DNA of 64,000 nucleotides from an uncultured Elusimicrobia bacterium (lineage in GTDB: Bacteria; Elusimicrobiota; Elusimicrobia; 2-02-FULL-39-32). Both the position numbers and the translations under genes were made by a program. This document shows, in pieces, positions 3,241 through 51,220 of the stretch; the first letter of the stretch is position 1, and every line of letters starts with the position of its first letter. The DNA lies in the NCBI GenBank assembly GCA_964523525.1, contig CAZFYO010000002.1:133038-197037 (forward strand), in the 5' to 3' direction. The notes under the pieces were generated by a model, which did not search any database, was not told where the DNA came from, and saw only the letters and a list, made by a program, of their open reading frames with translations.

Positions 3241-3531
3241 ATGAACGGCGAAACGGCGAACCACGAAAGCCACACGAAAACCTACCTGACGATCTTCGGC
3301 ATTCTCATCCTTTTGACGGGTGCGACCGTCGGAGTTTCGTACATCCACATGGCGAGGCCGGCGGCGATCAGCGTGGGACTCCTCATTGCGGCGGTCAAAG
3401 TTTCGCTCATCGTTGCCTTCTTCATGCACATGAAACAGGAAGGCCGGATCATCCGGGGTCTCTTCCTCACCGCGTTCCTGCTCGTCATGGTCCTGCTTTT
3501 CTTCGTTCTGCCGGACCTGGGTTGGAAGTGA
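3241..3531 (+). CDS. cytochrome c oxidase subunit IV (prokaryotic CoxD/COX4_pro-like small subunit)
   Basis: 96 aa with three predicted TM helices, immediately downstream of coxC. The size and hydropathy fit bacterial subunit IV. Confidence 0.55.
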   Translation: MNGETANHESHTKTYLTIFGILILLTGATVGVSYIHMARPAAISVGLLIAAVKVSLIVAFFMHMKQEGRIIRGLFLTAFLLVMVLLFFVLPDLGWK

Positions 3532-3767
3532 TGGCCCGGATTTTTTTCCCGGCGGTCCTGTCGCTTCCTTTATTTTTCCCTTCGGCCGTTCTGGCCTGCT
3601 CGGTCTGCATGAAGGGCGCGACTCCCGACGCCCAGCGCGCGTACTTTTGGGGGATATTGATGCTCCTGTGCCTCCCATTCATTCTTTTCTCCATCATCGG
3701 AAGCAAAATCTTCCTCAGCATCCGCAAGAAGGCTCAGGGGTCCGGGTCGGGATCCCATGCCGTCTGA
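3531..3767 (+). CDS. small two-TM membrane protein with a CxxC motif (candidate oxidase assembly or Cu-handling factor)
   Basis: The ATG overlaps the subunit IV stop (TGATG). Encodes about 79 aa (MARIFFPAVLSLPLFFPSAVLACSVCMKG…) inside the 2991..3767 frame. No recognisable family. Confidence 0.35.
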   Translation: MARIFFPAVLSLPLFFPSAVLACSVCMKGATPDAQRAYFWGILMLLCLPFILFSIIGSKIFLSIRKKAQGSGSGSHAV

Positions 3768-4677: not shown

Positions 4678-4693
4678 GCTGAAGGGGTCCGCC

Positions 4694-26032: not shown

Positions 26033-26080
26033 GGAATGAAAGGGTACAAAATCGTTCCGGTCATGTCAAAAAAGCGTGGA

Positions 26081-29000: not shown

Positions 29001-32000
29001 AGCCCGGAGAAAAAATGATAGATGTCTGCCGGATCGTTAGGAACCACCTGATGAAATAATGAAAGGCCCTTGGGCTCTGCTTTGATTTCGCGGCGCTGCG
29101 AGACCAGACGGAACGGGCTCCGCTCACCGTACGTCCCATTGAAAAAATCCGTCAGTTTATCCCAGGCCTTGTAATAGTAATCGAGCTGGAACCAGCCAAA
29201 CCCATCTGACCGGCGGCGCCACTCCCCTTCAAAATCATCTCCAAAAACCTCGGGCCGCTTGAGCTTGCTATCGGCCCAAGACCGAAATATTTCGTGAATT
29301 TCCTGACGCCCTTTAATCACGCTAAAAATGTCGGGATCTACGTTCCATATATTCAAATCCCGCTCTTCAATCAGGATGGGCATTTCGCCGAGGTATATCC
29401 TGCGGTGGTCCGCATCCAACGTGACGACCTGTCCGTTCCATTTTTTCAGGACATCAATGGCTTCGGCAGCGCCCACGATGCAGGGGATTCCTATGGCCTG
29501 GGCATTTTGCGCTGCGTGGGACGTAACCCCGCCATCCGTGGTCACCACCGCGGCCAGTTTTGCAAACACGGCATTCCACTCGTTGTTGGTATGGTGCGTC
29601 ACAAGAATCGCCCCCGGCGTTGCATCGCGATGCTGGTCCGTTGACTCTATGATTTGCAAGCGGCCGACCACTGCCCCCGTGTTTGCGATTCGGGATGACG
29701 CTCCCAATGTAACCTGGGGAGCCGACCGGGCGGTTTCCGATTTATCATCTACAACCGATACGGAAATCGTAAACTGGCCGCCGCTTTTATTTGCAGCTTT
29801 CACTGCCTTAGGTCGGGCCTGAAGGATATAAAGTTCACCATTCTCGCCAAAACAAAATTCGATATCGAGTTGCTCCGCCCAGTCCTTGTTCAGATAGTGT
29901 CTTTGAAGGTTCCCCGATAGGAGGCTCAACCTCAAAACCTCCACGTCACTCAAACTGGGGTCATCTCCAATTATGGACTCTTCGCGAACCCCGCCGCCCC
30001 TGCCCGCCGCAATGCGCGCCCGCTTAGGCACGATCGACTTGTCGAAAATAACGTCGCCCATATATCCCGTTATCCACCGATCACTGCCATAGCTGTTCTG
30101 CTGAACGACGCCTTCCCCAAGGCCGGGCTGGGCTTCAATGACGTGGAGAGGCCACTGCGTTTCATCATGCACCGTGAATAGCACTCCTGCGGCCTTGGGA
30201 TCCACGAATTGCTGGAGAACGACCGCCATTCGCGCCTCTTTTTCCGAAAAGCCGAGTGTTTTGCGGTGAGTGACGAACTCCTTCGAATAAAGACTGGCCC
30301 AGACTTTCTTGATATCGGAAAACAGTTCTTCTTCTGTGATGATGTGCAGGAAGGATTGCGCGAGCCCCGCGGCGGAGGAGCCCTCGATATCTTCAACGTT
30401 GGCGGAACTACGCGCCGCGACATCGCGGCCCAGTTTTCGAAAAACGTCGCTCAGCCCCTTTCGGAGCCCGACAGGCATTTCCATACGGGTGATACGTGTC
30501 CTGAGTGCCGAGGCCGTTTCCTCAATGCCGTTCTCGGACGATTCGGATTCCAGTTTTTCCACCAACCTTGAGACTTCCGGATCCGCGAGAACATAGCGTT
30601 CAAACGCGGCAGTGGTCAGCACTTCGGTCTCCGGAACCTTGAAATGAAGCCCATCTCGATTCCTGTAAACTTTGGAGATATCCCGGAGACGGTGCAGATT
30701 TAACCCCTTGCCCCCCACGAGGTGCAATCTGCCGGACATGGGATGCGCGGCCGGCAAAATGTCTGTGACCTGTGACCATATATCATCGTTTCCAAAATAG
30801 GGAGCAACCAGGTCCTGGGCGAAGTCCCGGGGCCCACGCAGGAAGCGGGCGCGGACCTTGTCCCAGTTTTCGAAGCGCATCAAATCGGAATCTGCGCCGT
30901 CATAATCCGGAGCCTGGCCCGAGACACCCAGGTTATCAATCGCGCGTTTCCGGGCTCCTTGCTTGCGGGTAATGATGCGGGATATTTCATTTTCTTCCGC
31001 AGCATTCAAGACATACACCATGAGCGTGGACTCGTCGTTCGAATCCATTGGAAATACGTAAGGAATTCCCGTCCGAGCCCGAACCTCCTCAGCTGCCGAC
31101 TGAACCGGGGACCGGGTGCGTTGAGGATTGACCGAATAGAGGCTCAGGCACCGCGTAAAAGAATTGTAGTCAGCGAAGATTTTTTCGCCGCGGAATCGGG
31201 AGGAGAAATCTCTCAAAATTTCGCGAAGCATTTCTTCTTCCAATTCACTGAAGGCAAAGAAATCATAGCTGATCATCCCGGTCCGAAAAGAACCGGCGCT
31301 ACCCACCGTTTCCAGCCTGCGGAGATCAGGCGTAATGCCCACTTCTTCCTGAACCGCGCGAGCAGCGGCGGCTTCCAGGGTCTCGCCATCTTTCGGTTTT
31401 CCATTGGCGGACACTGTCCACTTGTAGGGAAACGACCGCTTGAAGGCGCCGCGTTGCTGCAAAAGCACTTTACGACGGCTGGAATCCATGACCAGAATCT
31501 GGACCGAACGGCCACTGGTGCCTTGAGTCCAGCTTCCGCCACTCAGCGCTTTGGCGAAGAGCCGGGAAACGTAGCGCAGAGATAAGAGCTTATCCCGCAT
31601 ATCCAGCGCCGAACCAAACGCCAGGTTTCTCTCCATCTGGCTCTGAATTTCCTGGCCGGCTGTTCTGGATCCGGCGAAGTCCCCTTCGCCAAAACGTTCT
31701 CGCATTTTCTTCGCGCGCTCTACCTGCCCTTCCTGCACCGCACGGCGAACATCATCCCTGAGTTTATTTTCGGGCACGGAATACAGGAACTCCGCTGCAG
31801 TGCGATCAACTACCGGAAAGGATCCTCCAGCGGAGCGCATGATTCGCCTGTCCTGCCAACTTGCGGTAAAATAATCCGAACCCTGCGGCACATAGGCAAA
31901 GACGACTCCTCCTTTAGGCACACCGCTGACCGCCATAGAAAAATTTCCATAGGCTTCAAACAGATGAAATGCGGGCTTCTGGACATTGCGCAGCATTTCA

Positions 32001-35000
32001 AACTGAAGCGCTCCCACCGAAAACAGGTAATCCGCACCATTCACTGCAGCAAAAGCTTCTCCGGAAAGGCGGCTCATGTCGGTACCCTCATGCGGCGGAC
32101 CGTTCCCAATTAGATTAAAGCGCCCCTTCTCCTGCAGTCCCCTCAGCGGCTCAAAAATCGGGTCTTCCAGTATTTCAAGGGTACTCAAATAACTGAGATC
32201 AGTCCGGTAATTCGCCCTTTTGGGAATGAAGTTGATGCTCAAATTGGGACTCTCCAGCAGCATCTCCATCGCAAGTTTTAGAACGAGGACCGATTCGCCG
32301 TTGTCATCCGGCAGCCAGGCAACCGTAACGGGGGTTTTTGCATTCAGGACGGAGTTTTCGAAATGCGAATATGCGTCAATTGCGGGGACAGTGCTATCGA
32401 AGGACGCGAGCTTTTCCATGTTTGCCACGGCGATGGCATCCGCGGTACCAGACTCGCGCCCGTCATACATTTCGTATTTTAGGATTTCAAAAACACGCGC
32501 TGAACGCAGGAGGAGTTGGCGGACGGATAATCCCGGCTCGAATCGACGCAGCATAGCCAATGCGGTCGCATTGGAAAGATCGTTGCGCTCGCGGTAGGGA
32601 TCGAAATCGGGGTCCTGGATTTTTCCAGTCGCAATGATCTCTATGATTTGCATCGTGAGCAGGCCTCGTTGCCAAGTCGTAAGGCCGGACTCCAGGGAGG
32701 AACCGTCATCCATGGGAATTTTCCAGGCCAGTTCCAGGAGTTCCAGCCCGCGGGCCGTTAAGGTTGAAAGCGCTCGATCCTTGTCCTTCCGGCGCATCAG
32801 ACCGTTGGAAATTTTCTGATCCAGCCAAAGCGAAAGATCCCTTTCGATGAGCTTGCGTCCGACGATCCTATCTTCGCTCTCTTTTTCCATCCCGGCAACG
32901 TCGCCGGCAAGGTATGCGCTTGAAACATAACCACGGCCTACAATTTGCTCGAGGTCATGATTAGCCGCGGAAGGTGGTGACCGCGGCAGAAGGGTTTCCA
33001 GAATACGCCGGCGCTTGGCGGAGATGTCACGATATTGAATGGATTCTTTCCAGCCGAGATCTTTTTTAAGGATGTCATAAAGTTCGTGAATGGCGCTTTC
33101 AGATGACTGAAACTCGTTTACCGACGGTCTCACCTGATCCGAGATTGTGCCAGAGGATCTGAACTGACTGACAAAAACAAACGCATCAAATGCAATGTGG
33201 GCTGCGATTGCGGGCAGGGGATGAACGGCATACATCAGAAAAAGTGCGGACGAGCCCCATTGCAGGCGGCTCCAGGGAGAACCGCGCACCCGTCGCGGCG
33301 CGAGCGCGATAAAATATGGAACGTGCATGGCAGCGTACAGAGAGATCACGGCGAGGAATACCGGAGGCTCCAGCCAGCCCGGAAGGAGCCAGGCGCCCAA
33401 TATGATTTCTGCAAACGTTCCCGCCGCCCCTATCGCGGCAAGATGCGCGCGATTTCTCACTCCTGCCACTTGAGCAGCCAAATACGCCATTGAATTCGCG
33501 GCCGCGACTCTCGAACTGAAAATGGCCATCCGGGCGTCGACAAAAAGTGACAGAATTCGGCTGACCCCGGTAAATCCGGCACCTGCCTCATCCACGTTCA
33601 TTTGGCCCGTATCGGGGTCCTTTGAAACTGAATACTTCATGGATCCGTTGGGGCCCGAGACGGAAACCCGGACCCGTCCGGGCCCGGCATCTTGCAGCCG
33701 GGCCGTGAAGCCATTGGCCGCTTCGCCCAGCGCCATGGACATACCGGCATCCACCTCCCGGGCGTCGAGATGAGTATCTGCCCCGTTCGCGATTTCTTCA
33801 AGGGCGAGCCGATCAATCGCAGCGGATCGTTGCGCTTCTAAAGTCCATGGCTCGATTGAGACGAAAAGTTTTTCACCGCTAAAAAGCTTTTCGATGGGGG
33901 TTTTCTCCCGGGCGAAAATGGAAAGATATTGCGCGCCGCCGAAGGTTTCAATCTTTTCGACTTTCGGTGAAAGCGTCAGCACCGCTACGCCGGATGCAGA
34001 GATATCTTTTTCGATAGCGGACGAATGAAAGCCTCCCGCGACCAGCACCGCAACGTTGCTCCCGCGCTCCTTCATCTCCCGCAGGAGCTTGAAAGACATG
34101 GCGCGATCGCGAAGAGTCGCCTCTCTGAAAAACTCCTCAAACATCGCGAGCTCCGGATCTTTGCCTGCCAGAGATTGATACGCTCTCCACTCCCCGGGTG
34201 AGAGGGAATAGTCCAGAAGCCGGCCAGTTAGTCCCGCTGCGCGGGACTGCTCCAGTAGCCTTTTCTCATCCTCGGACCGGACCAGAACCCTGTATGCGGA
34301 GGCCTCCAACGCCCCCAGTTGATCAAAAAATTTATCTGAGCGGATCCCGTCCGACAGTGCGGCGTATCGGACGTACCGGACCAACTCCGGAAATTCAGAA
34401 AACCGGACGCCGTGCTTTTTCCCTATGCTCTCCAGCCGGCCGTAAAATTCCGAATGGTCAAGCTTGCCACATCGGTAAGCAATCGCAGCGTTTGCAAGAT
34501 TCTCGGATTCCCTCCGACCGATCGAGCGCGCCAGCTGCCCAAGAAAATCGCCGCGCTGTTTTTCCACCGCTCTGAAATCTATAGAAGATTCCATGTTCAG
34601 GACAACCAAAAATTTCCGCACTTCGTCGGAGTCCTCCGCCAGAGGTGTGACTGCAGCCAGGGCCCGGACGTACTGGCCCAGCGGGATCTTTTCGCCGCGA
34701 TGAGACTGCACCACCCTGTCGAACGCGAGGAGCCGGGGATTGAACGTCTCGAGTTTCCGGCGCTCCAGTTGCAGCTGAACTCGCTTCAGCTGCCGAAGTC
34801 GCGCGGGCGCGGCCGCGAAAGAACCGAGATAGGCGCTCACGTTCGCCGCGTAGCGCTGGCGGTCGTCCACGCCGGTAAAAATAGGAGCCCTGCGCGCGGT
34901 CAGGCCGGCATGCACGGGGCCGGTAATTTTATTTTTCTTCAGAAGGAAATCAGCGACTGTAACTGTCGATTCCAGCTTACCGGATGATCTGAATTTTTCC

Positions 35001-35461
35001 AGATCCAACGGACCAAAGGCGCCCTCGAGCGCAACGAAGTCGACACCGCCCTCATTGATCAGCTGGTGAACAGATGCTGATATATTTTTTTGAGCATCCT
35101 CATTCAGGTGAATGTCCTGAATATGGATCACGACAGGCTGTCCGGCTTTCCAACCGGGAGGAACCAGAGCCCTGCGAAGGTTTGAGAATTCAAGCGGCAG
35201 CCGCGGCAAATCTCCGGCAATTCCTGACAGGTCCTCGCGCGCATTCAAATCGGCAGAACGCAACGGGCGTAGGCCCGGCATAGCCACTGAAGGAGCGGAC
35301 GGGGCGGCCGCTTCTATCCAATGATTCACGGATCTAGCCTGATTGGCCAGGAGCAATGGGGCGGTTACAAAGTTTTGCAGGAGGCACGCGGCCAGAAAGA
35401 CCGCGAAAAGTTTGCGGCAGGGGTTCTGTCGGTGGGAAGTTCCGGCTAAGCGGAGACCCAT
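26081..35461 (-). CDS. giant multidomain membrane protein 1 (3126 aa). It has a signal anchor, a paralogous N-terminal domain, a TM cluster, a possible DUF89-like domain, a NUDIX domain and a PEP-utilising dikinase-like module
   Basis: Uninterrupted 9.38-kb ORF. The ATG at 35461 overlaps the stop of giant gene 2 by 16 nt. Domains were assigned from motifs read in the translation (see the separate entries). Confidence 0.85.
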   Translation of the reverse strand: MGLRLAGTSHRQNPCRKLFAVFLAACLLQNFVTAPLLLANQARSVNHWIEAAAPSAPSVAMPGLRPLRSADLNAREDLSGIAGDLPRLPLEFSNLRRALVPPGWKAGQPVVIHIQDIHLNEDAQKNISASVHQLINEGGVDFVALEGAFGPLDLEKFRSSGKLESTVTVADFLLKKNKITGPVHAGLTARRAPIFTGVDDRQRYAANVSAYLGSFAAAPARLRQLKRVQLQLERRKLETFNPRLLAFDRVVQSHRGEKIPLGQYVRALAAVTPLAEDSDEVRKFLVVLNMESSIDFRAVEKQRGDFLGQLARSIGRRESENLANAAIAYRCGKLDHSEFYGRLESIGKKHGVRFSEFPELVRYVRYAALSDGIRSDKFFDQLGALEASAYRVLVRSEDEKRLLEQSRAAGLTGRLLDYSLSPGEWRAYQSLAGKDPELAMFEEFFREATLRDRAMSFKLLREMKERGSNVAVLVAGGFHSSAIEKDISASGVAVLTLSPKVEKIETFGGAQYLSIFAREKTPIEKLFSGEKLFVSIEPWTLEAQRSAAIDRLALEEIANGADTHLDAREVDAGMSMALGEAANGFTARLQDAGPGRVRVSVSGPNGSMKYSVSKDPDTGQMNVDEAGAGFTGVSRILSLFVDARMAIFSSRVAAANSMAYLAAQVAGVRNRAHLAAIGAAGTFAEIILGAWLLPGWLEPPVFLAVISLYAAMHVPYFIALAPRRVRGSPWSRLQWGSSALFLMYAVHPLPAIAAHIAFDAFVFVSQFRSSGTISDQVRPSVNEFQSSESAIHELYDILKKDLGWKESIQYRDISAKRRRILETLLPRSPPSAANHDLEQIVGRGYVSSAYLAGDVAGMEKESEDRIVGRKLIERDLSLWLDQKISNGLMRRKDKDRALSTLTARGLELLELAWKIPMDDGSSLESGLTTWQRGLLTMQIIEIIATGKIQDPDFDPYRERNDLSNATALAMLRRFEPGLSVRQLLLRSARVFEILKYEMYDGRESGTADAIAVANMEKLASFDSTVPAIDAYSHFENSVLNAKTPVTVAWLPDDNGESVLVLKLAMEMLLESPNLSINFIPKRANYRTDLSYLSTLEILEDPIFEPLRGLQEKGRFNLIGNGPPHEGTDMSRLSGEAFAAVNGADYLFSVGALQFEMLRNVQKPAFHLFEAYGNFSMAVSGVPKGGVVFAYVPQGSDYFTASWQDRRIMRSAGGSFPVVDRTAAEFLYSVPENKLRDDVRRAVQEGQVERAKKMRERFGEGDFAGSRTAGQEIQSQMERNLAFGSALDMRDKLLSLRYVSRLFAKALSGGSWTQGTSGRSVQILVMDSSRRKVLLQQRGAFKRSFPYKWTVSANGKPKDGETLEAAAARAVQEEVGITPDLRRLETVGSAGSFRTGMISYDFFAFSELEEEMLREILRDFSSRFRGEKIFADYNSFTRCLSLYSVNPQRTRSPVQSAAEEVRARTGIPYVFPMDSNDESTLMVYVLNAAEENEISRIITRKQGARKRAIDNLGVSGQAPDYDGADSDLMRFENWDKVRARFLRGPRDFAQDLVAPYFGNDDIWSQVTDILPAAHPMSGRLHLVGGKGLNLHRLRDISKVYRNRDGLHFKVPETEVLTTAAFERYVLADPEVSRLVEKLESESSENGIEETASALRTRITRMEMPVGLRKGLSDVFRKLGRDVAARSSANVEDIEGSSAAGLAQSFLHIITEEELFSDIKKVWASLYSKEFVTHRKTLGFSEKEARMAVVLQQFVDPKAAGVLFTVHDETQWPLHVIEAQPGLGEGVVQQNSYGSDRWITGYMGDVIFDKSIVPKRARIAAGRGGGVREESIIGDDPSLSDVEVLRLSLLSGNLQRHYLNKDWAEQLDIEFCFGENGELYILQARPKAVKAANKSGGQFTISVSVVDDKSETARSAPQVTLGASSRIANTGAVVGRLQIIESTDQHRDATPGAILVTHHTNNEWNAVFAKLAAVVTTDGGVTSHAAQNAQAIGIPCIVGAAEAIDVLKKWNGQVVTLDADHRRIYLGEMPILIEERDLNIWNVDPDIFSVIKGRQEIHEIFRSWADSKLKRPEVFGDDFEGEWRRRSDGFGWFQLDYYYKAWDKLTDFFNGTYGERSPFRLVSQRREIKAEPKGLSLFHQVVPNDPADIYHFFSGLEGLSLEDYLDLYEARWRGFQQFAMFTESIETLDSSNVDAMVDALIDAFVWMHIGFWLDVIVDENLVRPRLVYLHKELHPYLRDVAVSDILPSGSINPFRSDIKPGWVLELSRAKDKEIYALLERIRRTPSAVAAFELNNDNRVDAAAAIAQRLEMGAPEILNAVRGWSDKYKETREHIELLDDTPRYLMDLHGRLKSGATIGIPLLARLFSGWEDYDAEKIRGQDPVLYDLIASRARLLAFESKYPDFETGNTEAMGNIKVLAMNSISPAEIEARIPDVLEQLLAQSEETGRYEQNARHIFEKLPELKVILALSRMEIVLREDGHHLIVPFQRKIARMMLNQGRLAVAKGILEKPEDIFKIGTDELIAVVREDRPLYIRDTLARWENLAAADIRMQERWSSDPRAAAGEFDAAVRAAISVLRRQASQTSIDRVRDAYLSEADRLRNRSDRLMERAAESGSPYDLVHVRRAGRAFGFVAGSAGLLFTLESALLLAGQVSGLSVPDFLRPSFVIFSFTTASLFALQSIAFGRERRWVEKAKISFSVSSEPVTSAEKLFAIERLRHILAGYHLLEGGLWDSVEVRVNSYLGHRGKAEARVINENGRQTLEISEWLVRLISSDPESPDLASLRTQVLETIFDRHEFIRLKMNRSLSFAQFLTDRGFQTLYIYAIHRPVTNLIRWVRSLISVIPERWSASPEEIVARLLVSGDEPHIGAILGPVEKSGVEDLGGVLHHAALPGVSKVLDQDVLVREIAKQIRIKRGMGQSKYSAKTPAIDQVLRDAVDAILNGVEFSDIGGRLSTVLSESKRPFIGVVIPPSADAEEFAMNVLSRLERPEELSRDAPAVGFFAPGLSQDQKDRIAQYARELGIVRVLFMGSENLFDPLHEVSGWNVNWNALDALTEGVRREGFGTHVFIVHRGLMGNLSGYSVLPQISLLKQGMILVINDLFQAMPLIDGNDIDNIWRDAELIAKQA
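29380..30715 (-). other. PEP-utilising-enzyme module inside giant protein 1: ATP-grasp nucleotide-binding domain plus phosphohistidine swivel domain, with no PEP/pyruvate TIM-barrel domain
   Basis: The VGGKGLNL glycine loop sits at 30700-30717. The …DIEFCFGENGELYILQARP motif ends the ATP-grasp part. The swivel domain reads GAILVTHHTNNEW…VVTTDGGVTSHAAQNAQAIGIPCIVG, with the catalytic His codon at 29516-29518. Confidence 0.75.
31130..31530 (-). other. NUDIX hydrolase domain inside giant protein 1 (non-canonical box with RA in place of RE)
   Basis: The Nudix box is GKPKDGETLEAAAARAVQEEVGI at about 31332-31401, matching Gx5Ex7R[E→A]UxEExGU, and is preceded by a VLLQQRGAFKRSFPYKWTVSANG strand. 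Confidence 0.55.
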
Positions 35462-38400: not shown

Positions 38401-41400
38401 CGCGGAGCCGAATTTAAAGCCAGTACTTTCGACCAGGCTCTGCGCGGGATCAATGATGGTGTCAACCAGACCTCCCACCGCGCGGGCGATCGGGATCGCG
38501 CCGTAGCGCATCGCCTGCTGCTGCGCAATGCCGCCCGGCTCAAACAGGGACGGAATAAGGAAGATATCGCTTGCGGCGAAGATGCGACGCGCCACGATCG
38601 GATCAAAGCGGTTGATGAATACGACGCTTCCGGGATAGCGGATCGCCAGCCTCTGAAAGGCCTGCTCATATTTTTTTTCATCGGCGTTGGCGGTCCCCAA
38701 AATCACCAACTGCGCGCCGCTGTCAACCGCTTCCTGTACGTGGTTCAAAATCGTCTCCATGCCCTTTTGATATGTGAGCCGCGTCACCACCGCCAGAAGG
38801 GGCTTGCTCGCATCCTCTTCCAGATAGCCATAGCGCTTGCTCGCTGGGTCATTGGAGGGGCTGGAGTACCTGGCCTGCAGGGTCATCTTGTTTCGCGCCT
38901 TTTGATTAAATTTCTCGTCCGCGTCAAAAGGACTGTAGCCATCCTCATTCAAGACCGGATCGCTCTGAGGATCCCAGCTCACTATGTCTATACCGTTCAC
39001 AATGCCGGCAAAATCTCCGTCACGTGCCCGAAGCAGCCCATCGAGGCCCGTCTCAAAGTCGCCCGAAAGGATTTCATTGCGATACGAAGGGCTGACGGTA
39101 ACCAGCTTGTCGGCATAATACAAGCCGCCCTTGATCAGGCTGATATCGCCGTAATATTCGATCCCCTCCATATTGTTGACAGAAGCTGGCAACCCCATCG
39201 CTTCAAGCTCTTCAAACCAGCCGGAGGGAAACTTTCCCTGATAATCGTGTCCGATATTGTGGATCGTGAAAACGGTCGCCGGTATCTGCTCGCCGGGTTT
39301 GGCGGTCATTTTTAGAAATGGCGAGACGAGGCCCGTAACCCAGTCGTGACTATTGACCACATCGGGATCGAGGTTCAGGACCCGGATGGCTTCAACCGCA
39401 GCCCGGGAAAAGAGCGCTGCTTCCATGAACGCCTCCCGCCGGTCAGGATGGTAACCTTGACGAAAATATTTTCCGTTGGCCAGCAGATAAACCGTGACCC
39501 CGTCGGATTCCGCCTGAAGGATCCGGAAACGGACGAAGCCGCGGGCCGTCTTAACGCTGACGATTTTTCCGGTGTCTTTCGCGCGTCGTTCCAGCGCATC
39601 ATGGTGTCCGGGCAGGACTATCGATACGTTATGACCCGCCTCGCGCATGGCCATGGGAAGCTCTTTAATGAAGTCGCCGACGCCGCCCACCTTAAAAAAT
39701 CCGCCCATTTCATATGCGACATGTACGATTCGGCCCTGACCATTCTTCAACCGCTCAACCCGCTGATGCGCGCTTTCGAAGGGGCGTTCAGCCTGCTTTG
39801 GAAATACCGCGGCATGCGCCCAATCCAAAAGCTCTTTCTGACGAATGGCTTCAGCTCCGGGGACACGCTTGGAATCGATCAAAGCATCATGAGCGTCATC
39901 ATAATCAGCGCCTGGCCTCATCAAGAACTCGCGTAGCAACAGCTCCCTTTCAACGAGAGTTTGGATAAGCCTCAGCCTCGTGGCATCCTCTTCCTTGAGG
40001 AGGGAATCAAGGATGATCTTATTAATTGAAAATATTGCCTGTCCGCTATCCTTGACCACGAACGGAGCCAGGAGGAAATTATCCGGCCCCTCGATCAGTT
40101 CCCGTCCTTCGTGAACTCTAACGTCAACGTGGAGAATCCCCAGATTCGCCATGCGTTCGCTATTCGATTCGAACAAACGCCGAATTGATTCCAATACCGT
40201 CATTTCTTCAGTACTTAGTTCTGAGGGCACAGACTGCTGAAGCCAATCCGAAATGAGATTTTCAAAAAATTGCCGGAGCTGATCCGGAAATAACGATTCG
40301 AATTCCCTGACAAACCCGATGGAACCAGCCGCCGCCAATCTTTCCTTCAGAGAACCGTCAGCATCATCAATCATGTTCATGGATCTAAAAAATCTGGACC
40401 ACGGCACAAGAGTTAGAGAATACCGCATGATGAGCAGCTGGACCAACTGCTCCAGAGTCCCGACGTGCAGCGCTCCCTGGGTGGCGCGGGGCGCAGATGG
40501 GAGAGGCGCGATGGCTCGAGGCTCCTGTATTTGCGAGCGCGCACCGAGCAAGCTGCCCTCATCCGCCATGGCTGCGGGATATAATTCCACGCGGGGACCG
40601 TTTGCAGAGGCGCGGTATCCAGCGCTATGCAAAAAGTCGAGCAACTCGGCTCGCTGTCCCGGAGAAAAGCGGCTCATATCCAGAGACCTTACGTAGTCTT
40701 CAAAACGTTTTTCTCCGACGGTCAATTCCTGAAGCCGGCCCGTATTGCCCCCCGTGCGGATTGTGGCGGCAAGCTGAAGCAGCAGTTCGGGCGCGCTGGC
40801 CTGATCCATCATCGCCGCCATTTGACGTAGCGTGCCCATCGCAGCCTTGACCGTTTCCCCCCAGCCCGCCGACACGACGGAATCGGGGCCCGGCGTCCCC
40901 TCGGCGAATTTCATGACAAAGTTGACTCGAGCTTGATCGCCCTGGAACGACCCCAAAAGGCTGGATGCATCGCCCGTTTTGAATGGACCGAAGAAAACTG
41001 CCCGGCTTCTCAGGAAATGGAGGATGTCTTTCGGCAGAGGGGCTGCGGACGAAATGGTCGCGGGAAGATTCCTTAAGTTATGGGCATATGTGGAAAGCAG
41101 AGATTCCGTATTTTTCGGATCGAAACGCCGGACGGCCGCGACAGGGCCACGTGTCTCCGACAAGCCTTGCGTGTTGGACAGGCTTGGCCTTATCACACAG
41201 TACGGTATCTGACTCCGCCTCAGCTCAGCGACGATTCCAGAGGTATGGAATCCACCCGCCACCAGAACCACCCGTCCCGCTTTCTGATTTTTCGCTAACT
41301 TTACGGCGTTTTCCGCCAGGACGACATCCCGCTGATGAGCCCGCTCAAAATATTTTTGAACATATTCGGAATGGCTTTGAGTCAACGCGATTAATTTTTT

Positions 41401-42882
41401 CCATTGCCCCTCGGTCCCAATGGGATGCGTGCGTCCCGCATCTTGTTCCAAAGCATCAAACGCGGCGCGAAACTCATGCCAGCCCATCGCATGCTGTTCG
41501 TCCCTATAGCCCGCCCAATCCGCAGGCGACATCTCAAGCAGCCAGAGTTTTTCCTGAGTTTTCAGCCACCGCTCCAGTTCGAGAACCCGCCCAGCCAAAG
41601 CGCCCTCACCGCTCAAATCCCGCTGCGCCGCAAGCGTCAGAATCTTCAGGCTATCCTGAAGATTCTCAAGCGTGATGCCGTCTGCCTTCTTCAGGTATTC
41701 CACGTAGCGCGACGTATGAGGCAAATCAACAGAGTGGGTTCTTCCAAAATGGATAAATGCTCCATAATATTCGAGAGGACCCACCGAGCCCAGCCTGAAT
41801 TGGATACTGATAGCGGCGAGCCGCGAAAGGGCGTCTGAGCTGGCGCGGGTCTGCAGCTCCTTTATAAAAAAATTGCGCTCCTCCTCCATTTTTTCTTTGA
41901 TGAAAGATGATTCCATCATGCGAAGATCATCCACCGCTTTCAGCGTTGGCCCTGCCGCTGCGTTCCATACCCCGGGAGCAGCGGACTTCAAATAAGACAG
42001 ATAAGAATTGAGGGACAATTCGTTCTTTTCAAACCGTTTCAACTGTTTGTCCAAGGCCAATAGTTCGTGCGGATAGGCGCGGGACTTCAACCCGTCGATT
42101 TCTGAAAGAAGAGAACGGATGTTTAATCCCCCGGGCTGGCCGGCGGGATGCGCGGGACCGCTGGCGCCGACGATACGGTTTTGAACCGTGAAAATATTTT
42201 TTTGCAATGCGACGTTTTCACGGTACAGAGCCTCGTTTTCAACTCCCTCCACGTCTATGAATCCGGCCCCTTCGAGGATACTGAGATATTCCTCGCCGCT
42301 GATTTTCGCGCGCGCCAGAAGGTCCTCGGCCAGAGATTTCCGTATATTCTTATCGGGAAAAGCGTGCAGCCATTCCAGATCCACGCTCTTCCAGGCGCCT
42401 TCCACACCCACGACAAGCGGAGCCGCTGGCGAACCCGCGCGATCGGACTGGCGCTTCAGATATTGGAGGATAACCGCAAGATTGCGCTGCGCATGCAGAT
42501 AACCATGAGCGTCCTGAACATGGATAACCATCGGAGTTTTATCGGAGGCAGAAGGCCAGTATGTGTCGATAACTTGACCGGCGCCTGGAGGAATTTGCAG
42601 GCCCACCCCTTCCGCAAAGAGGCCGGGGACGGGTTGGGTCAGAAGATTCGCGTCTGTGGATGAACCCGACTTCGAGTCCATGCCGCTGATCGTTTCTAAT
42701 GCCTTGCGGCGTTCAGACCAGAGTGATGCCTGCGCCAGCGGTGGAGCCGCAGACGAAAAGACCAGGGAAAAACAGACGATGAATGTCGCCCCCCTGGACG
42801 CAAATGACAAATGATGTTTTCTGTTGTTTCCCATACGAATCAGCGGATATGCCGTCAGGCGCATGCCGCCCGATATCGGCAC
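35446..42882 (-). CDS. giant multidomain membrane protein 2 (2478 aa). It has a signal anchor, a paralogous N-terminal domain, an embedded GT5 glycogen/starch-synthase domain and a C-terminal polytopic TM cluster
   Basis: Uninterrupted 7.4-kb ORF. Candidate starts are GTG 42882, ATG 42864 and ATG 42834. Only 29 nt separate it from the stop of giant gene 3. Confidence 0.85.
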   Translation of the reverse strand: MPISGGMRLTAYPLIRMGNNRKHHLSFASRGATFIVCFSLVFSSAAPPLAQASLWSERRKALETISGMDSKSGSSTDANLLTQPVPGLFAEGVGLQIPPGAGQVIDTYWPSASDKTPMVIHVQDAHGYLHAQRNLAVILQYLKRQSDRAGSPAAPLVVGVEGAWKSVDLEWLHAFPDKNIRKSLAEDLLARAKISGEEYLSILEGAGFIDVEGVENEALYRENVALQKNIFTVQNRIVGASGPAHPAGQPGGLNIRSLLSEIDGLKSRAYPHELLALDKQLKRFEKNELSLNSYLSYLKSAAPGVWNAAAGPTLKAVDDLRMMESSFIKEKMEEERNFFIKELQTRASSDALSRLAAISIQFRLGSVGPLEYYGAFIHFGRTHSVDLPHTSRYVEYLKKADGITLENLQDSLKILTLAAQRDLSGEGALAGRVLELERWLKTQEKLWLLEMSPADWAGYRDEQHAMGWHEFRAAFDALEQDAGRTHPIGTEGQWKKLIALTQSHSEYVQKYFERAHQRDVVLAENAVKLAKNQKAGRVVLVAGGFHTSGIVAELRRSQIPYCVIRPSLSNTQGLSETRGPVAAVRRFDPKNTESLLSTYAHNLRNLPATISSAAPLPKDILHFLRSRAVFFGPFKTGDASSLLGSFQGDQARVNFVMKFAEGTPGPDSVVSAGWGETVKAAMGTLRQMAAMMDQASAPELLLQLAATIRTGGNTGRLQELTVGEKRFEDYVRSLDMSRFSPGQRAELLDFLHSAGYRASANGPRVELYPAAMADEGSLLGARSQIQEPRAIAPLPSAPRATQGALHVGTLEQLVQLLIMRYSLTLVPWSRFFRSMNMIDDADGSLKERLAAAGSIGFVREFESLFPDQLRQFFENLISDWLQQSVPSELSTEEMTVLESIRRLFESNSERMANLGILHVDVRVHEGRELIEGPDNFLLAPFVVKDSGQAIFSINKIILDSLLKEEDATRLRLIQTLVERELLLREFLMRPGADYDDAHDALIDSKRVPGAEAIRQKELLDWAHAAVFPKQAERPFESAHQRVERLKNGQGRIVHVAYEMGGFFKVGGVGDFIKELPMAMREAGHNVSIVLPGHHDALERRAKDTGKIVSVKTARGFVRFRILQAESDGVTVYLLANGKYFRQGYHPDRREAFMEAALFSRAAVEAIRVLNLDPDVVNSHDWVTGLVSPFLKMTAKPGEQIPATVFTIHNIGHDYQGKFPSGWFEELEAMGLPASVNNMEGIEYYGDISLIKGGLYYADKLVTVSPSYRNEILSGDFETGLDGLLRARDGDFAGIVNGIDIVSWDPQSDPVLNEDGYSPFDADEKFNQKARNKMTLQARYSSPSNDPASKRYGYLEEDASKPLLAVVTRLTYQKGMETILNHVQEAVDSGAQLVILGTANADEKKYEQAFQRLAIRYPGSVVFINRFDPIVARRIFAASDIFLIPSLFEPGGIAQQQAMRYGAIPIARAVGGLVDTIIDPAQSLVESTGFKFGSASMDPQAQERAYVRALTQALALYREQSQGFSGMQRRAMSAPKSWNELVPQYVKIYENAVDPSLVPALRESDYAAPVSPAAVIPDFEHVPTLPFGAEYSADEKAAADVLRFIGAMPEDLTAWEEQIFALLSQPTVGAQHLLLNLYRKYLIAQSEQPAALLPVLERVIGRLMDRSIQRILTYGDPYEVEAARRTLYFLAYMETYDDHIYYGTGWTIPTLRQNRDEFDRREGRRTDFKKITSPAVESRLQNIHAKLMGKLQAIETAGDLVGADPRGLDLLRSMTPVLESKRSLDQYVFHQSKGDFNSIKEHGLSVRHTQGGERPDRIFFWDSRFYLGTIQNSPYEGSTRWNIPYLWLRVKKDAPTILENRVRGGELYDFAGDFKGTEIPPEYLELVDPGKPWIGYPITEFENADQFFEKIGTPNPFKSAKGGGMIFKPGQRFGFMQYREIAWLAETLLIALPAWLAMLLGVDAAGHSFGIAAASTLLSSHIIRVVQERRSGSSVFDVSGWNWKVLISRDVLVVSALSGLAAGLVPVLGMQNSAVPFAILAVVHQRINASANIKDSGEMKSAPAVTGAATFLSVRAHSIFKPLVLFASLSAAAMGFAGVAGAPDIWHGLSVGGQNQLAQQLLGELASGLAVAPEKLALDVVSSFAGAGRLLEVLPVVGALFSKFEEVHSVGTGRGTIAFTAGAAAVGGLLSRDALTRYFSKVQWMGALQNARFAALLPRQAVVLISGPGSWTAAVGLALSGFASKATVRNIQGDSTALSPRQMPMPKIEGRILSAVTESHLNETRILLVDSGAPQRSPSGISAAIPALADHYLALLQDRDDPESRGRMFMAFDVSQISLSEVEAEQLKGQISKGTGLPEDFVILYHTPADAMAQAGRIAAQYHSKANLVIQVLTQNAAKWDIEGVAMILDVGKTINLRGPQAARMLRSILEQLNLSDSERGAISYDDATGNLRINAAETLNPATLENSWKANRIIWVSA
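38217..39735 (-). other. GT5 glycogen/starch synthase (GlgA-like) catalytic domain inside giant protein 2
   Basis: The N-terminal signature is VAYEMGGFFKVGGVGDFIKELP at 39661-39720 (KxGGL-type). The C-terminal Rossmann half reads …VTRLTYQKG…ILGTANADEKKYEQ…FLIPSLFEPGGIAQQQAMRYGAIPIARAVGGLVDTI. Confidence 0.8.
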
Positions 42883-48900: not shown

Positions 48901-51203
48901 GTGGTGAGGGACTTGCGAAAGCCGGACGCTCCCTGAATCCAGCCGCGCACCTTCGCGGCGGCGCCGAATATCTGGCGGCGGACTTTGGCGACGGTGATGA
49001 TGATCACGGGGTGATTTTTGGTGCCGGCGCGGAACGCGAGGGGACCGGCATCGGCGAGATCGGACGGAACTTCGCTGCCCAAAAAGACGGTGCGGTCGCC
49101 CTGGCCTTCGATCGAAACTGCATACGTTCCGGCACCCAGAGCGGTGACATCCGCTTCGGCTCCCGCGATCTGCGTGGCGTTGGCCTTGCCGGCTTCAACG
49201 TCGTTCGCTTCGGCGCCCAAGGCGGCGGCGAGCGGAGCGGCAGCGCCGGTCATGAGGTTCCGCGGGTTGACGACTCCCGGATACTGACGGGCAGCGGTGG
49301 CGCTGGGCGGCATCAGGAACAGGCGTTCGCCGAGCAGCATTTTTTCCAGCGGCGTGCGGTTCGGAGAAAAAACGTGGAGGTAATCGGTGCCGGAGCCCGA
49401 AACTTTGCCGATGCGCGGGCGGAACACCGCGTAGGAGTAACCGCGGGCAGACATTTCCTCTTCGAGGCCGGGCGTGTGGAACCCGCCGGCGATCAGGACG
49501 GCGAACCCGCCGGACTGCTCTTTGATCTTCGCCGAGAGGTTGTCGGTGAGCGCGACGTTGCGGGCGTGCGACGCGGCGTAAAACGCTTCATGCGCGGACA
49601 AAAGTTGCGCGAAGGAACCGGATCCGGCGGCTAGCGCACCCGATACGGGAGCAGCCGAAGCGCTTTGGGCGCCGTCATTGCCGGACCGGGCGAAGTTCAG
49701 GACGCGGCCCGCGTTTTTGACGGGCTGTTCCACGGCGAGGGCGGCGACGCTCTTGCCGCTGGTCTTCACGATCTCCGAAAGCAGGCGGATGTTTTCCGGC
49801 AGGCGGACGATGCCCGCTTTGCGCGATTGGTAGGACTTCCAATCTTCGGGCGAAAGCTCCTGGCGCGTCATCTTCCCCGCGAGGCGGAGGTCCGACGCGT
49901 AATCAAAAACGTTCTTCTGCTCGGGCGTCTTCGCGAGGCGGCGGATCACCGCGCTTTCGATGCTTTCGAGATTGTCGAGCAGGGAATTGAAATCGATCCG
50001 CTCGGACATGAGCACGTACTGCACGTAGGCGTTGAAGCTTTTATACTGTTTCAAATCAATTTTGGCGTTCAAGAGCATGGCCTGGAGCGAGCGGTAATAG
50101 TCCGCGTAGCCGATCCGGCCGAGGCGGTAGGACACGCTCATCTGCAGGAGCTGGTTCAAGTCGGCGGGTTTTAGTTTTTTGGTGAGCGCGCCGATCAGCT
50201 CGTTGCGTTGTGATTCGACCGACTTGAAATCGAGGTCTTTTTCGACGCGGGCGAGCGACAGGTACTTGTCGAGCTCGGGGTAACGGCCGGAGTTCAGCTC
50301 GGGCGACCCCTCAAAAAAACGGATGTATTCCGCGAGGGTGATCTCGCGCTTATCAAATTTTCCTTCCAGGGTATCGAGCTTCGCGAGTTCGGGCGTCAGG
50401 ATGCGGCTCTTGACGGCCGCGAGGTCCGCGCTCATCGCCTCAATCATCGGCCCGGTTTTCTCGCGGGCTTCAAGGCCGTTGCGGTAGGCGGCGACGTTAT
50501 CAAGGTAGAGCTTTTCGTCTTCCACGCCCCAAAGCAGGGGTTCGCGCTCGGCCATCAGGCCGAAATATTCCGCGCCGTTGATGAGCGACTTTTGGATCAG
50601 CACTTCCCAGATTTCTTTCTGGATTTTGGGGTTTTTGAGCTGACGGTACTGGTTGATGTCGAACGCGCCGCTCGACCCTTCGAGGCCGACCAGGAGCCGG
50701 CGTCCGAGTTTGGTCTGGAGGTGCGAAAGCGTCTGCGCGATGTTTCTCTGCGCGGCTTCGACCTGGTGCGCGTCCTGGATCAGCAGGATAAAGGGAGCCG
50801 ACGGGTTCTTGGCCTGGTGCGCCTTGATCACCTCGCCGTAAGAATAAGGAACCGCGAGCAGGGGCTCGGGCAGGTTCCCCGCGTTGACGGCAGCGCGGAC
50901 GGAAGCGCCGGCCGATTTTCCCGGCAGGCCGCTTTGCTTGAGCGGCAGGGACATCGCCGGCTTCGCGCTTTCGGGCAGGAGGTTATCCATGCCGGCGGAA
51001 AAATTCTCCTGGATGTACCCCGCCGCCGAAGCGAGCTGGGTATGGGTTTCGGAGGCGCGGGTCTCCCCGCTGTTCCGAGCGGCCTTGCGCTGTTCCCACA
51101 GATTGGCTTCCGCCACGGGGACGGCAACCGACGTGTACAGCAGGGCCAGCGCGAGCGCCGACGCCGCAAATTTTTTGATGTGTTCCGCGATGATTTTAAG
51201 CAT
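42912..51203 (-). CDS. giant multidomain membrane protein 3 (about 2763 aa from the RBS-supported start). It has a signal anchor, a paralogous N-terminal domain, a complete phosphoglucomutase domain and two tandem HIGH-type nucleotidyltransferase units
   Basis: ORF track 42912..51257. The ATG at 51203 (MLKIIAEHIKK…) is preceded by GAGGGAG 7 nt upstream and lies 17 nt past the TAA of giant gene 4, so it is the likely start. Confidence 0.85.
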   Translation of the reverse strand: MLKIIAEHIKKFAASALALALLYTSVAVPVAEANLWEQRKAARNSGETRASETHTQLASAAGYIQENFSAGMDNLLPESAKPAMSLPLKQSGLPGKSAGASVRAAVNAGNLPEPLLAVPYSYGEVIKAHQAKNPSAPFILLIQDAHQVEAAQRNIAQTLSHLQTKLGRRLLVGLEGSSGAFDINQYRQLKNPKIQKEIWEVLIQKSLINGAEYFGLMAEREPLLWGVEDEKLYLDNVAAYRNGLEAREKTGPMIEAMSADLAAVKSRILTPELAKLDTLEGKFDKREITLAEYIRFFEGSPELNSGRYPELDKYLSLARVEKDLDFKSVESQRNELIGALTKKLKPADLNQLLQMSVSYRLGRIGYADYYRSLQAMLLNAKIDLKQYKSFNAYVQYVLMSERIDFNSLLDNLESIESAVIRRLAKTPEQKNVFDYASDLRLAGKMTRQELSPEDWKSYQSRKAGIVRLPENIRLLSEIVKTSGKSVAALAVEQPVKNAGRVLNFARSGNDGAQSASAAPVSGALAAGSGSFAQLLSAHEAFYAASHARNVALTDNLSAKIKEQSGGFAVLIAGGFHTPGLEEEMSARGYSYAVFRPRIGKVSGSGTDYLHVFSPNRTPLEKMLLGERLFLMPPSATAARQYPGVVNPRNLMTGAAAPLAAALGAEANDVEAGKANATQIAGAEADVTALGAGTYAVSIEGQGDRTVFLGSEVPSDLADAGPLAFRAGTKNHPVIIITVAKVRRQIFGAAAKVRGWIQGASGFRKSLTTLPPLQPLFIMAFISATLGAVIFFLTGNNDLSVFGAMGLPMAAGVTGDGSIESVPVKITRAQRDEIRFGTAGWRARFPSEKNPNGTFSPDRIRVLMQSAADYMNQNRSSFREAGLTDWRGRPTIVIGYDHRHQGNHPATGEDLSEKAYAEMAARIFAANGIKVKLLSRAASTPLNLYEMWPHEGAKSAMMVNFTASHNPAADGGVEFFDGRTGGLADSPVSNPIVDHLKGIRRVKMLRSDFDLDNHPLVEVIEPSIEKYVDYLINVIGVNPDDIRASGINALFDGQNGVVGGVAQEIIDRLGIGQNVTIINGQADPEFGGRNNSEITAANMEKTMQQIRSEKRDAGVTGDGDFDRSGLMAPKADGSVRLYSGNDLASVQVYGFLKSEKERLGDDFDPAKYVVVRSIVSTSWVDSIAASFGVPQDNIRLTAVGFRFLNNEIRRAKEEGKTVILSFEENGGIALGSALPYKDGLASTLYALTVAARAKQAGNSMEGLFQEADEAARRPDYGRYDVEVDAVKAGVQGSRGLVMQKFEAAQKEFQAAIERGEQPVLGNTGLRVIKTETMDGYYYRLADASGKLVGWVNVRASGTEPLFRIYVETVEETPGSARINQQVYQWGRDIIFAEIGGAKNAHVKTVGDARINEELPEDSDSIGSSVEANIDLASGNLAKRIEDSNLSDPAVMEKVIAEARALTPKVYGAHMNAIDKSVMSRYVANGTTAEVKAGLLQIRNMLFQRGADLALDGMRRSGLVLNYPSEDDSALEAIRKFRENVIVLRKWAEAYARAYKEDSGASEDFVKEFDVEIDVEIASIYDMLLEPNGVIDQIEKNIVDGVTEPNSVHLKLSRNDQNTPSIEKSDGRQAKVGFLPMKGDPWQIGHLAQPLRAMAEQGLDKILVMIDNSDPVRKPDLSSLSVREALTIELMKIASPFVEYTPIAKEEEDLWTADGETSIFRLIQFNRGLNVLWFYFVGGDHRFWEVVRNGVRMPDTVKKITQKMADGLDGYGREGREGEPMGIIFLERTGDEFKQSLTHEDRERAEAGGKIELTLQELRNRSGISEIYNIKPKGVNITSATRVRKQRHWWTVPAPIYFMAQNIQFWDIGAAKRVAAVDPFVNDLADRISSENLADTDVVQSLSRDLRNLSPDMYGPQMNAVDRSLMRRYFDSGSVSAVRAGLLEIRNMLFQRGAELAREGMRRANVMTRRPEEPDDALAAVARVRENLLRSREWALAYAEKYVAANPVPDAESNIWEYDRIVREIENEIYGPLLAAVDKIEANVKSGETDPNAVKIKLSRGDETGASIKTQGGRPGRIGFYPMKGDPWQMGHIALMSIAEHKLDKVVVMIDNSDPTRKPGLSTLSIREAVTLELLKAFEPFIEYSPIAKEEDDLRDADGETSIFRLMSFNRGVNVEWSYMVGSDHRYWEVTKNGNIQPDTTKKLKDKMESKLDGYDGESMGVIFIERAGEEFKPGELQALRDRSGISNIVNVRQMMDTSSTRVRKNAHWWTVPYFVYYMGQSLKFWDIHAAVEVDESSLSWNQDENDGTRPGVLSRLGDILPIVVLALPFVAITALIMQYLGFGGSGTDVSASLGTEQGYLVGGFVGAVGFRDALYQGLGRLRNFVTGRSPVQPELTDLPSVTGILDDLISSGMDRSTAEPLSRHIMNYGLLSLVSGMSVGLEGETQSVVTDKDIQIAIRVVTQGNVALVSPQDAERAAVAVRALQSIISERRERLRQDRSETGFFADSVSFAMTAGTFGSGNPDASRRVAEILIASHEREASVSGVKIGKDWPRAFMAVAAMAGKLLPHALGKDSDFANRIIIARGRRIYSEGYLESVGLEIGDGSLKRTGQMIVDIKGNSAGALAELKQVLRQKISDQRNLGVLSPGLDNLLLALNEGRVRVIHTNDKVLKQVVGGKQVMDLNYGRLYVKGFLEVMQISGRPLILNQGQRVMTDDPSMIDLTGMDLDQIMFVLWYSLSAVFKIKASDALLEDIKANSVILRQA
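44327..46895 (-). repeat. intragenic tandem duplication in giant gene 3: two ~1.3-kb units, each a helical region plus a HIGH-superfamily (NadD/NMNAT-like) nucleotidyltransferase domain
   Basis: Unit 1 runs about 45572-46895 and unit 2 about 44327-45545. They share roughly 65% aa identity. The GFLPMKGDPWQIGHL… and GFYPMKGDPWQMGHI… segments each carry a HxGH-like motif, followed by ITSATRVRK and DTSSTRVRK (SxTxxR). The duplication also shows as near-identical antisense ORFs at 44722-44970 and 46042-46362. Confidence 0.7.
47102..48725 (-). other. alpha-D-phosphohexomutase (phosphoglucomutase/phosphomannomutase) domain inside giant protein 3
   Basis: All four diagnostic motifs are present in order: FGTAGWRA, the active-site Ser loop TASHNP, the Mg loop GDGDFDRSG, and the phosphate-binding RASGTEP. 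Confidence 0.85.
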
Positions 51204-51216
51204 GGTATTCTCCCTC
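51204..51216 (-). promoter_or_regulatory. Shine-Dalgarno sequence (GAGGGAG) for giant gene 3, in the 17-nt spacer after the gene 4 stop
   Basis: The minus-strand sequence is GAGGGAGAATACC followed by the ATG at 51203, which implies translational coupling. Confidence 0.6.
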
Positions 51217-51220
51217 GATA

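Follow-up and report, generated by a model that had tools for sequence, protein, structure and literature searches.

The stretch analysed here, referred to as the window, comprises 64,000 nucleotides (nt) of DNA from an uncultured Elusimicrobia bacterium (assembly GCA_964523525.1, contig CAZFYO010000002.1, positions 133,038 to 197,037), and the subject of this report is a conserved N-terminal domain, the head, which precedes otherwise dissimilar tails in giant proteins encoded there. The list of open reading frames (ORFs) of the window contains four very long minus-strand ORFs, g1 to g4, packed head to tail. According to Pfam and NCBIfam, g1 (26081-35461, 3126 amino acids (aa)) consists of a head and a tail with a NUDIX domain and a dikinase-like unit, while g2 (35446-42882, 2478 aa) combines a head with a GlgA-type glycogen synthase; g3 (42912-51257, a 2781-aa ORF) joins a head to phosphoglucomutase-type domains recognised by Pfam. 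The probable start of g3 is the ATG at 51203, and the database protein P0005 is identical to g3 from M19. Each of the three is a singleton in the protein database, in which g1 is identical to P0006. The fourth gene, g4, extends on the minus strand from 51221 to beyond 64000, with its N-terminus outside the window and about 4,221-4,259 aa visible. This visible part displays about 25 hydrophobic segments by Kyte-Doolittle hydropathy; it has no Pfam domain, yields no head copy when the family hidden Markov model (HMM) is run against the six-frame translation of the window, and resembles neither g1-g3 nor the 150 best family representatives. No internal repeats were detected in g1-g4 by BLASTP. 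Head-bearing genes occupy 38 of the 64 kb.

The heads of g1, g2 and g3 are paralogous, as a preliminary description of this DNA had proposed. Pairwise BLASTP aligns g1 with g3 at 24.7% identity over 555 aa (E 1.1e-45), g2 with g3 at 25.0% over 609 aa (E 2.7e-38), and g1 with g2 at 23.8% over 487 aa (E 8e-22), and beyond these N-terminal matches there is no high-scoring segment pair at E<=1e-3 among g1-g4. Run against all six reading frames of the window, the family HMM detects these three heads and nothing else (E 2e-160, 4e-147 and 9e-90), the last and most divergent being that of g2. The segments delimited in the preliminary description lie within the BLASTP matches, corresponding to g1 aa 105-544 (33829-35149), g2 aa 115-570 (41172-42540) and g3 aa 155-665 (49262-50795), and the strings quoted in it are present and aligned, namely VVIHIQDIHLNEDAQKN / MVIHVQDAHGYLHAQRN / ILLIQDAHQVEAAQRN, VALEGAFG / VVGVEGAW / LVGLEGSS, SGEEYLSILEG / NGAEYFGLMAE, and LVAGGFHSS / LVAGGFHTSG / LIAGGFHTPG. 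An artefact of low-complexity or coiled-coil sequence, named beforehand as what would refute the claim, is ruled out, since conservation is concentrated in particular polar and aromatic positions; the columns invariant across the three copies include polar and charged residues. The closest foreign relatives are nearer than the neighbours in the window: g1 and g3 reach up to 42% and 49% identity, respectively, with proteins of other genomes, as opposed to the 24-25% between the copies of the window, which are old paralogues.

The conserved module begins with a hydrophobic, signal-like leader. The N-termini of g1-g3 carry positive charge followed by a hydrophobic segment of about 18 residues, and the leader follows the consensus [KR]-x-[LF]-[AS]-x-x-L-x-x-[VLI]-[YF]-[FL]-x-[TS]-[NQ]-[CV]-x-[FL]-A-[HY]-x-[AP]-E-x-N-[FL]-W-x-E-R-[RK]-[KR]. 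All of g1-g3 have a leader, as do 113 of the 149 sequences examined for one. In g1, it lies at 35348..35404 (minus strand, aa 20-38, hydropathy 1.96) and the subsequent motif (35306-35323, minus) is degenerate, with NHWIEAA in place of NFWxERR. The leaders of g2 (42733-42789, minus) and g3 (51114-51170, minus) are followed by SLWSERRK (42703-42726) and NLWEQRK (51084-51104), respectively. The conservation of this element greatly exceeds that expected of an ordinary Sec signal, and it may therefore constitute a dedicated sorting or processing signal. A variable linker separates it from the domain proper, which is located on the minus strand at 33842..35179 in g1 (aa 95-540; BLASTP, alignments, AlphaFold2 (AF2) models and PF04187), at 41143..42561 in g2 (aa 108-580; BLASTP, alignment and HMM), and at 49280..50801 in g3 (aa 153-659; BLASTP, alignment, hydropathy and HMM). 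The domain of about 450 aa outlined in the preliminary description is thus real, and with its leader the conserved module measures about 540-660 aa.

Beyond the leader, the module is predicted to comprise a five-strand alpha/beta core that is split by an all-helical insert of about 265 residues. Two AF2 models of the g1 head agree on this layout (predicted local distance difference test score, pLDDT, 77.5 and 81.8; predicted template modelling score 0.65 and 0.71). In the better model, strands are predicted at 16-22, 48-51, 100-103, 376-382 and 399-403 in beta-alpha-beta order, and in both models an all-helical block (107-372) intervenes between strands 3 and 4. The conserved motifs of g1 map to the edges of the predicted strands: IQDIH (D116-x-H118; 35108..35122, minus) at the end of strand 1, ALEGAF (E146; 35015..35032, minus), 28 residues past H118, at the end of strand 2, LRDRAM (R451; 34097..34114, minus) in the helix before strand 4, and AGGFH (H479; 34025..34039, minus), the second GxxH motif, right after strand 4. 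These are the places that active-site residues occupy in alpha/beta hydrolase-like folds. The Arg and AGGFH motifs fall within and at the end, respectively, of the PF04187 match discussed below. The equivalent minus-strand motifs are VQDAH (42505-42519), GVEGAW (42391-42408), QRDVVL (41317-41334) and AGGFH (41245-41259) in g2, and IQDAH (50766-50780), GLEGSS (50670-50687), ARNVAL (49548-49565) and AGGFH (49476-49490) in g3. The preliminary description had given the pattern as GxxH…E…GGFH; its Glu and GGFH elements are borne out, whereas the first motif is [IV]QDxH and not a literal GxxH.

Conservation was assessed in 138 representatives, each pair of which is less than 50% identical by construction, and is given in domain numbering. 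Fourteen positions, D22, H24, Q30, E52, G103, E197, R209, Y272, W331, R357, G382, G383, H385 and P405, are invariant in 138 of 138. They include D22, H24, E52, R357 and the G382, G383 and H385 of GGFH, in keeping with the earlier suggestion that the His, Glu and GGFH residues resemble an active site. The Gln of the first motif is 98% conserved, and the motif residues as a whole (Q, D, H, E, R and GG.H) are conserved at 98-100%. The spacing between the first His and the Glu is 28 in g1 and in the family consensus and 29 in g3; it is 35 in g2 because of a small insertion. Directly after the core stands a further conserved peptide, YLSVF..EKTPLEKLF.GEKLF, represented in g1 by YLSIFAREKTPIEKLFSGEKLF (33863..33928, minus) and in g3 at 49317-49382 (minus), most of which is missing from g2. 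Its Y, L, F, P and G are 96-99% conserved, yet its pLDDT is below 50 in both models; it is a candidate docking or cleavage motif that appears to be disordered.

These features very probably place the head in the TIKI/TraB/ChaN/erythromycin-esterase superfamily, as judged from sequence. The catalytic set of the TIKI fold consists of E-x-H, a Glu 28 residues on, and a second His, exemplified by H85/E113 in Bcr135 and E3900/H3902/E3930/H4030 in RRSP (PMC6254334). The head would present the corresponding two-His/two-acid set in its invariant D-x-H, Glu and GGFH, with Asp for the first Glu and Gln for the first Gly, so that IQDIH of g1 likely corresponds to the motif that comes first in TIKI enzymes (E-x-H/GxxH), and the spacing of 28 in g1 and the consensus equals that of Bcr135 and RRSP. 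At the profile level, the best match is ChaN (Cofac_haem_bdg, PF04187, a Tiki-superfamily model), which is matched by 16 of 23 family members (best E 5.1e-6) and by the family consensus at 30.9 bits, or 32.5 bits once the insert is deleted, in relation to a cut-off of 27.7. Among the next matches of the insert-deleted consensus are TraB_PrgY_gumN, matched weakly (E 0.0035), and Erythro_esterase (E 0.021). The loose likeness to TIKI, TraB and ChaN noted in the preliminary description is accordingly supported by profile matches, motif spacing and the top-probability structural match described below.

Several observations weigh against this assignment. The Pfam cut-off is reached by the family consensus only, and the copies in the window score below it: g1 matches PF04187 with an E-value of 0.011 for the complete protein and 0.0013 for the isolated domain (16.1-19.2 bits as against 27.7) and aligns only to model positions 159-204 of 213, while g2 and g3 as whole proteins have no listed PF04187 match in Pfam, and a whole-domain match above the gathering score, as expected of the ChaN family proper, was not obtained. 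Family-wide, PF04187 is matched solely towards its C-terminus (model positions ~130-204 of 213), i.e., over the half with the Arg helix, strand 4 and GGFH; the proposed equivalence of the QDxH/Glu half therefore relies on motif, spacing and predicted strands. The canonical first motif is altered, with Q for the first Gly and D for the first Glu. Furthermore, searches of PDB sequences with 6- and 23-sequence profiles and with the insert-deleted consensus recovered no TIKI-family chain, and the matches they returned, such as CWC23 and TarM, are due to chance. No NCBIfam model matched the head in g1-g3.

The predicted structures were compared with the PDB, in line with the earlier suggestion that a model be compared with TIKI folds. 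The highest-probability Foldseek match is HopBA1 (5t09), at 0.35 for the first model and 0.90 for the better one, a type III effector with a TIKI/EreA/ChaN-like fold that is, unlike the giants, small and soluble. However, no match is statistically significant (best E 0.19-0.25), and the HopBA1 alignment spans 99 columns, about a quarter of the query, at 23% identity (E 0.25) with a root-mean-square deviation of 5.2 A. EreC is among the matches of both models and occupies ranks 27 and 36 for the better one. The E-values fall short of significance because long helical proteins compete for the insert. It could be argued from the lack of a significant PDB match, by sequence or by Foldseek E-value, that the resemblance to TIKI and ChaN is fortuitous and that the head is an unrelated Rossmann-like alpha/beta domain with His and Glu motifs; a comparison by hhalign with a TraB/GumN profile built from Escherichia coli YbaP homologues also gave no signal, although that negative is uninformative because the profile contains enterobacterial sequences only and is shallow (effective number of sequences, Neff, 1.96). 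We regard this reading as very unlikely. ChaN, TraB and Ere, which belong to one Pfam superfamily, all match the insert-deleted consensus, with ChaN above its curated cut-off and recovered independently by 16 of 23 members, and HopBA1 and EreC rank within the top 36 of 350,542 chains for two independent models, TIKI-fold chains being rare in the PDB. The fold class is a known one; what appears to be new is the combination of a divergent branch with a large insert, a conserved leader, and a place at the front of thousands of giants of, so far, one phylum.

The interpretation that we consider probable is that the window contains ancient paralogous heads of a large family of giant multi-pass membrane proteins, in which the head acts as a membrane-tethered hydrolase of the TIKI/ChaN/Ere type. 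The invariance of D-x-H, Glu, Arg and GGFH makes an active hydrolase the most probable state and a degenerate binding domain a less likely one, as far as can be judged from sequence conservation. In such an enzyme, the His/acid pair would activate a water molecule that attacks an ester or a peptide bond, a mechanism put forward for the Ere and TIKI enzymes, and the helical insert of about 265 residues would probably form a lid or substrate-binding cap. The head would be tethered to the membrane in the manner of Tiki, in which a signal and the domain are followed by a transmembrane (TM) segment, or of PrgY/TraB, in which the domain precedes TM segments. Within the insert, a borderline match to the paired-amphipathic-helix model PAH_ZNF598 was observed at roughly aa 300-350 of g1 (consensus 194-240); it reaches 24.9 bits for the consensus with a cut-off of 25, occurs in 12 of 23 members, and covers the part of the insert that contains the invariant Arg209.

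Since ChaN provides the best and most frequent Pfam match, the head might instead be a non-catalytic ligand binder like this haem-binding lipoprotein, serving the giant protein as a periplasmic sensor or receptor, and the insert's own invariant residues E197, R209, Y272 and W331 could form the binding pocket. ChaN is itself extracytoplasmic and membrane-associated. We nevertheless find this improbable: the residues conserved at 100% are the two-His/two-acid catalytic set of the enzymatic members at the same spacing, and the PF04187 match is partial, with the window copies below its cut-off. Unlike ChaN, the heads carry the long helical insert together with the full catalytic-type residue set, and they front proteins of 1,000-5,600 aa.

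Other members of the superfamily offer parallels to the putative hydrolase, either in active site or in architecture. The Ere enzymes (EreA/B/C, Bcr135/136) and RRSP share with the heads an [E/D]-x-H, a Glu at +28 and a second His in a GxxH, and a helical lid is located between the two halves of the core in Ere enzymes. However, the Ere enzymes are soluble proteins of about 400 aa and RRSP is a toxin effector domain, and the heads resemble neither in this respect; the similarity reaches no significant sequence or Foldseek E-value, and the heads have Q and D for G and E in the first motif. Tiki1/2 and TraB/PrgY would resemble the head-bearing proteins in the succession of an N-terminal signal, a TIKI-type domain and one or more TM segments, which in the latter is predicted from hydropathy. 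Nonetheless, Tiki, TraB and PrgY measure 250-500 aa and end after the TM region, whereas thousands of variable residues follow it in the giants.

The size of the family was revealed by an exhaustive search, in which 1.84 billion representative proteins were screened with a profile built from the three window copies and three relatives; a word-indexed homologue search had given only 4-5 head relatives. The family comprises 9,525 clusters (50% identity) at E<=1e-3, of which 6,345 also pass E<=1e-30. Among the 150 best representatives, which range from 553 to 5,665 aa in length, the domain begins within approximately the first 160 residues, mostly around aa 100, and is complete by about aa 640. 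When genomes were scanned, one for each species, at least 561 genomic copies were confirmed, and the statements on taxonomy, copy number and neighbourhood rest on the best 79 loci of these. They belong to 25 metagenome-assembled genomes, all labelled Elusimicrobia or Elusimicrobiota and including Candidatus Obscuribacterium magneticum; the median length of the complete ORFs in these loci is 2,187 aa, 11 of the loci hold more than one copy, and several genomes have 8-10 copies among the matches listed. Judged from these best loci, the family has so far been seen only in Elusimicrobiota, and more distant relatives may exist elsewhere. A mobile-element origin was considered and rejected, as tblastn searches of 72,556 plasmids and 50,697 phage records were without a match. 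Together, these results point to an Elusimicrobiota-like organism as the source of the window. In one atypical relative, P0003 (647 aa), a family-4 uracil-DNA glycosylase domain replaces the Arg/GGFH half of the head and is fused to the N-terminal half, which retains the leader, QDxH, the Glu and some of the insert. Either the gene is chimeric or frameshifted, or the domains have truly been swapped.

In contrast to the constant head, the tails are almost never related. Those of 137 representatives show almost no mutual similarity, and 9 of 15 sampled relatives have no Pfam domain across thousands of residues. Such domains as can be identified belong to ordinary enzymes of the cytoplasm. The payload of g1 (29405..31513, minus; Pfam) consists of a NUDIX domain (aa 1317-1392) and a PPDK_N ATP-grasp with a phosphoenolpyruvate (PEP)-utilizer phospho-His domain (aa 1581-2019); this dikinase-like unit lacks the PEP/pyruvate barrel, and PEP synthase models match it only over positions 18-473 of 798. 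That of g2 (38233-39732, minus) is a GlgA (aa 1051-1550; TIGR02095, 411.6 bits with a cut-off of 328, and Pfam Glyco_transf_5), and that of g3 (47067-48704, minus) comprises domains I-IV of PGM_PMM (aa 852-1397; Pfam), with weak nucleotidyltransferase-like matches at aa 1632-1703. Other members contain a GH77 amylomaltase, an epimerase with NAGPA and a methyltransferase, an adenylate kinase, or a sigma-70 region 4. The PGM cassette of g3 recurs in P0086 at 42% identity, behind a different head and at a different position, so the tails seem to have been assembled by shuffling. The three payloads of the consecutive giant genes share one theme, alpha-glucan and sugar-phosphate metabolism. As a constant head precedes such tails, its role is probably generic to the giant protein, and it is unlikely that its job is tied to the tail enzymes; such a generic role could lie in anchoring, maturation, or processing of the giant itself or of a common envelope substrate.

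Membrane segments were called by Kyte-Doolittle hydropathy only. In most relatives, the first TM segment follows 40-170 aa past the domain, and further segments, often paired, are scattered along the tail. The first such cluster of g1 lies at 33305..33442 (minus, aa 674-719, hydropathy 1.69 and 1.88), and the next TM segment of g3 lies at 48825-48881 (minus), so that hydrophobic segments intervene between head and payload enzymes in both. In g2, by contrast, none is present between the head and GlgA (41083-39733, aa 580-1050; maximum hydropathy 1.0), and no TM segment occurs before aa 1943. The charge bias of the leader, with a net charge of +2.9 in the n-region as compared with +1.5 after it, together with the precedents of Tiki, PrgY and ChaN, suggests that the head faces the periplasm. 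To be set against this is the position of GlgA in g2, of the GH77 domain in P0010 and of the adenylate kinase in P0014, cytoplasm-type enzymes which would share the head's side of the membrane. The head may in fact be cytoplasmic, these enzymes may act outside the cytoplasm or in another cell, or simple hydropathy may miss membrane segments.

The combination of a constant head with unrelated tails also invites the view that the giants are membrane-anchored polyproteins and that the head is a cis-acting maturation protease. It, or its counterparts in sister proteins, would cut the giants at or near conserved linear peptides and thereby free or activate the enzymes within them. The head occupies the N-terminus in every case, its catalytic-type residues are invariant, conserved and apparently disordered peptides (ExNFWxERR and the post-core peptide) flank its core, Tiki and RRSP show that members of the TIKI family include site-specific endopeptidases, and the tails carry housekeeping enzymes of the stand-alone type. 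However, a shared cleavage or sorting motif was sought in the 137 tails and dismissed, since no exact 4- to 6-mer was enriched over shuffled controls, and if the leader exports the head, then the head and most of the tail may be on opposite sides of the membrane. We therefore consider proteolysis in cis unlikely as the specific function of the putative hydrolase. An even broader proposition, which is speculative and which we rate as improbable, is that a considerable part of the proteome of Elusimicrobiota consists of giant membrane-threaded polyproteins, each with a TIKI-type protease or esterase head that matures, anchors or delivers it, such that GlgA, PGM, amylomaltase, adenylate kinase and a sigma-factor region would be made, positioned or exported within giants. 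If true, this would be a way of organising a proteome, or of delivering effectors to host or prey cells, for which no bacterial counterpart has been described.

Elusimicrobia are among the phyla prone to huge proteins (PMC11573180). The giants of Omnitrophota are similar to the head-bearing proteins in being encoded by very long bacterial ORFs of uncultivated lineages, but they are far larger, as the public-data set of the Omnitrophota giant-protein preprint begins at 10,624 aa. Neither of these sources mentions a Tiki domain, and their mentions of Elusimicrobia or 'ChaN' describe no head-domain family; likewise, full-text searches on giant proteins of Elusimicrobia, protein families of groundwater Elusimicrobia and Tiki/TraB/PrgY found no published description of it. 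Head-bearing giants belong to a phylum with almost no experimental cell biology. Identification of the head as a TIKI/ChaN-type hydrolase would provide a first handle on a large block of the 'dark' coding capacity of Elusimicrobiota, with a concrete active site to mutate and a search profile for annotating such genes, while the embedded cytoplasmic enzymes, here three alpha-glucan steps, raise testable questions on localisation, processing and export.

The surroundings of the giant genes identify the window as a stretch of ordinary bacterial chromosome. The giants lie directly upstream of, and in the same orientation as, murB, ddl, a probable ftsQ, ftsA and ftsZ, beyond which come genes for aromatic amino acids. 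The overlap between g2 and g1 amounts to 16 nt (35446-35461), 17 nt separate the g4 stop from the probable ATG of g3 (51203-51223), and 48 nt separate g1 from murB (26032-26081). This tight packing and the shared orientation suggest co-transcription with the end of the division and cell-wall cluster. A conserved operon partner or synteny was nevertheless rejected, as the ten housekeeping genes downstream of g1 in the window (murB to tyrA, including ddl, ftsA and ftsZ) are unmatched in the 79 related loci. An ORF for a COG1373-like AAA ATPase occurs near family genes in 13 of the 79 loci, e.g., at 5555-6857 of locus L010, and besides it no neighbour family is found in more than 4. The opposite end of the window harbours a cytochrome c oxidase cluster, rpsA, cmk and aroA. 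This cluster (751-7397, plus strand) comprises COX1, COX3, a UbiA/CtaB-type prenyltransferase, an ABC ATPase and an SCO1-DUF420 fusion, and indicates an aerobic or microaerophilic free-living organism. Finally, a 191-aa ORF known from the ORF list alone runs antisense to the head domain of g1 (34412-34987, plus strand) and most likely represents a shadow ORF that results from the GC-richness of the coding strand.

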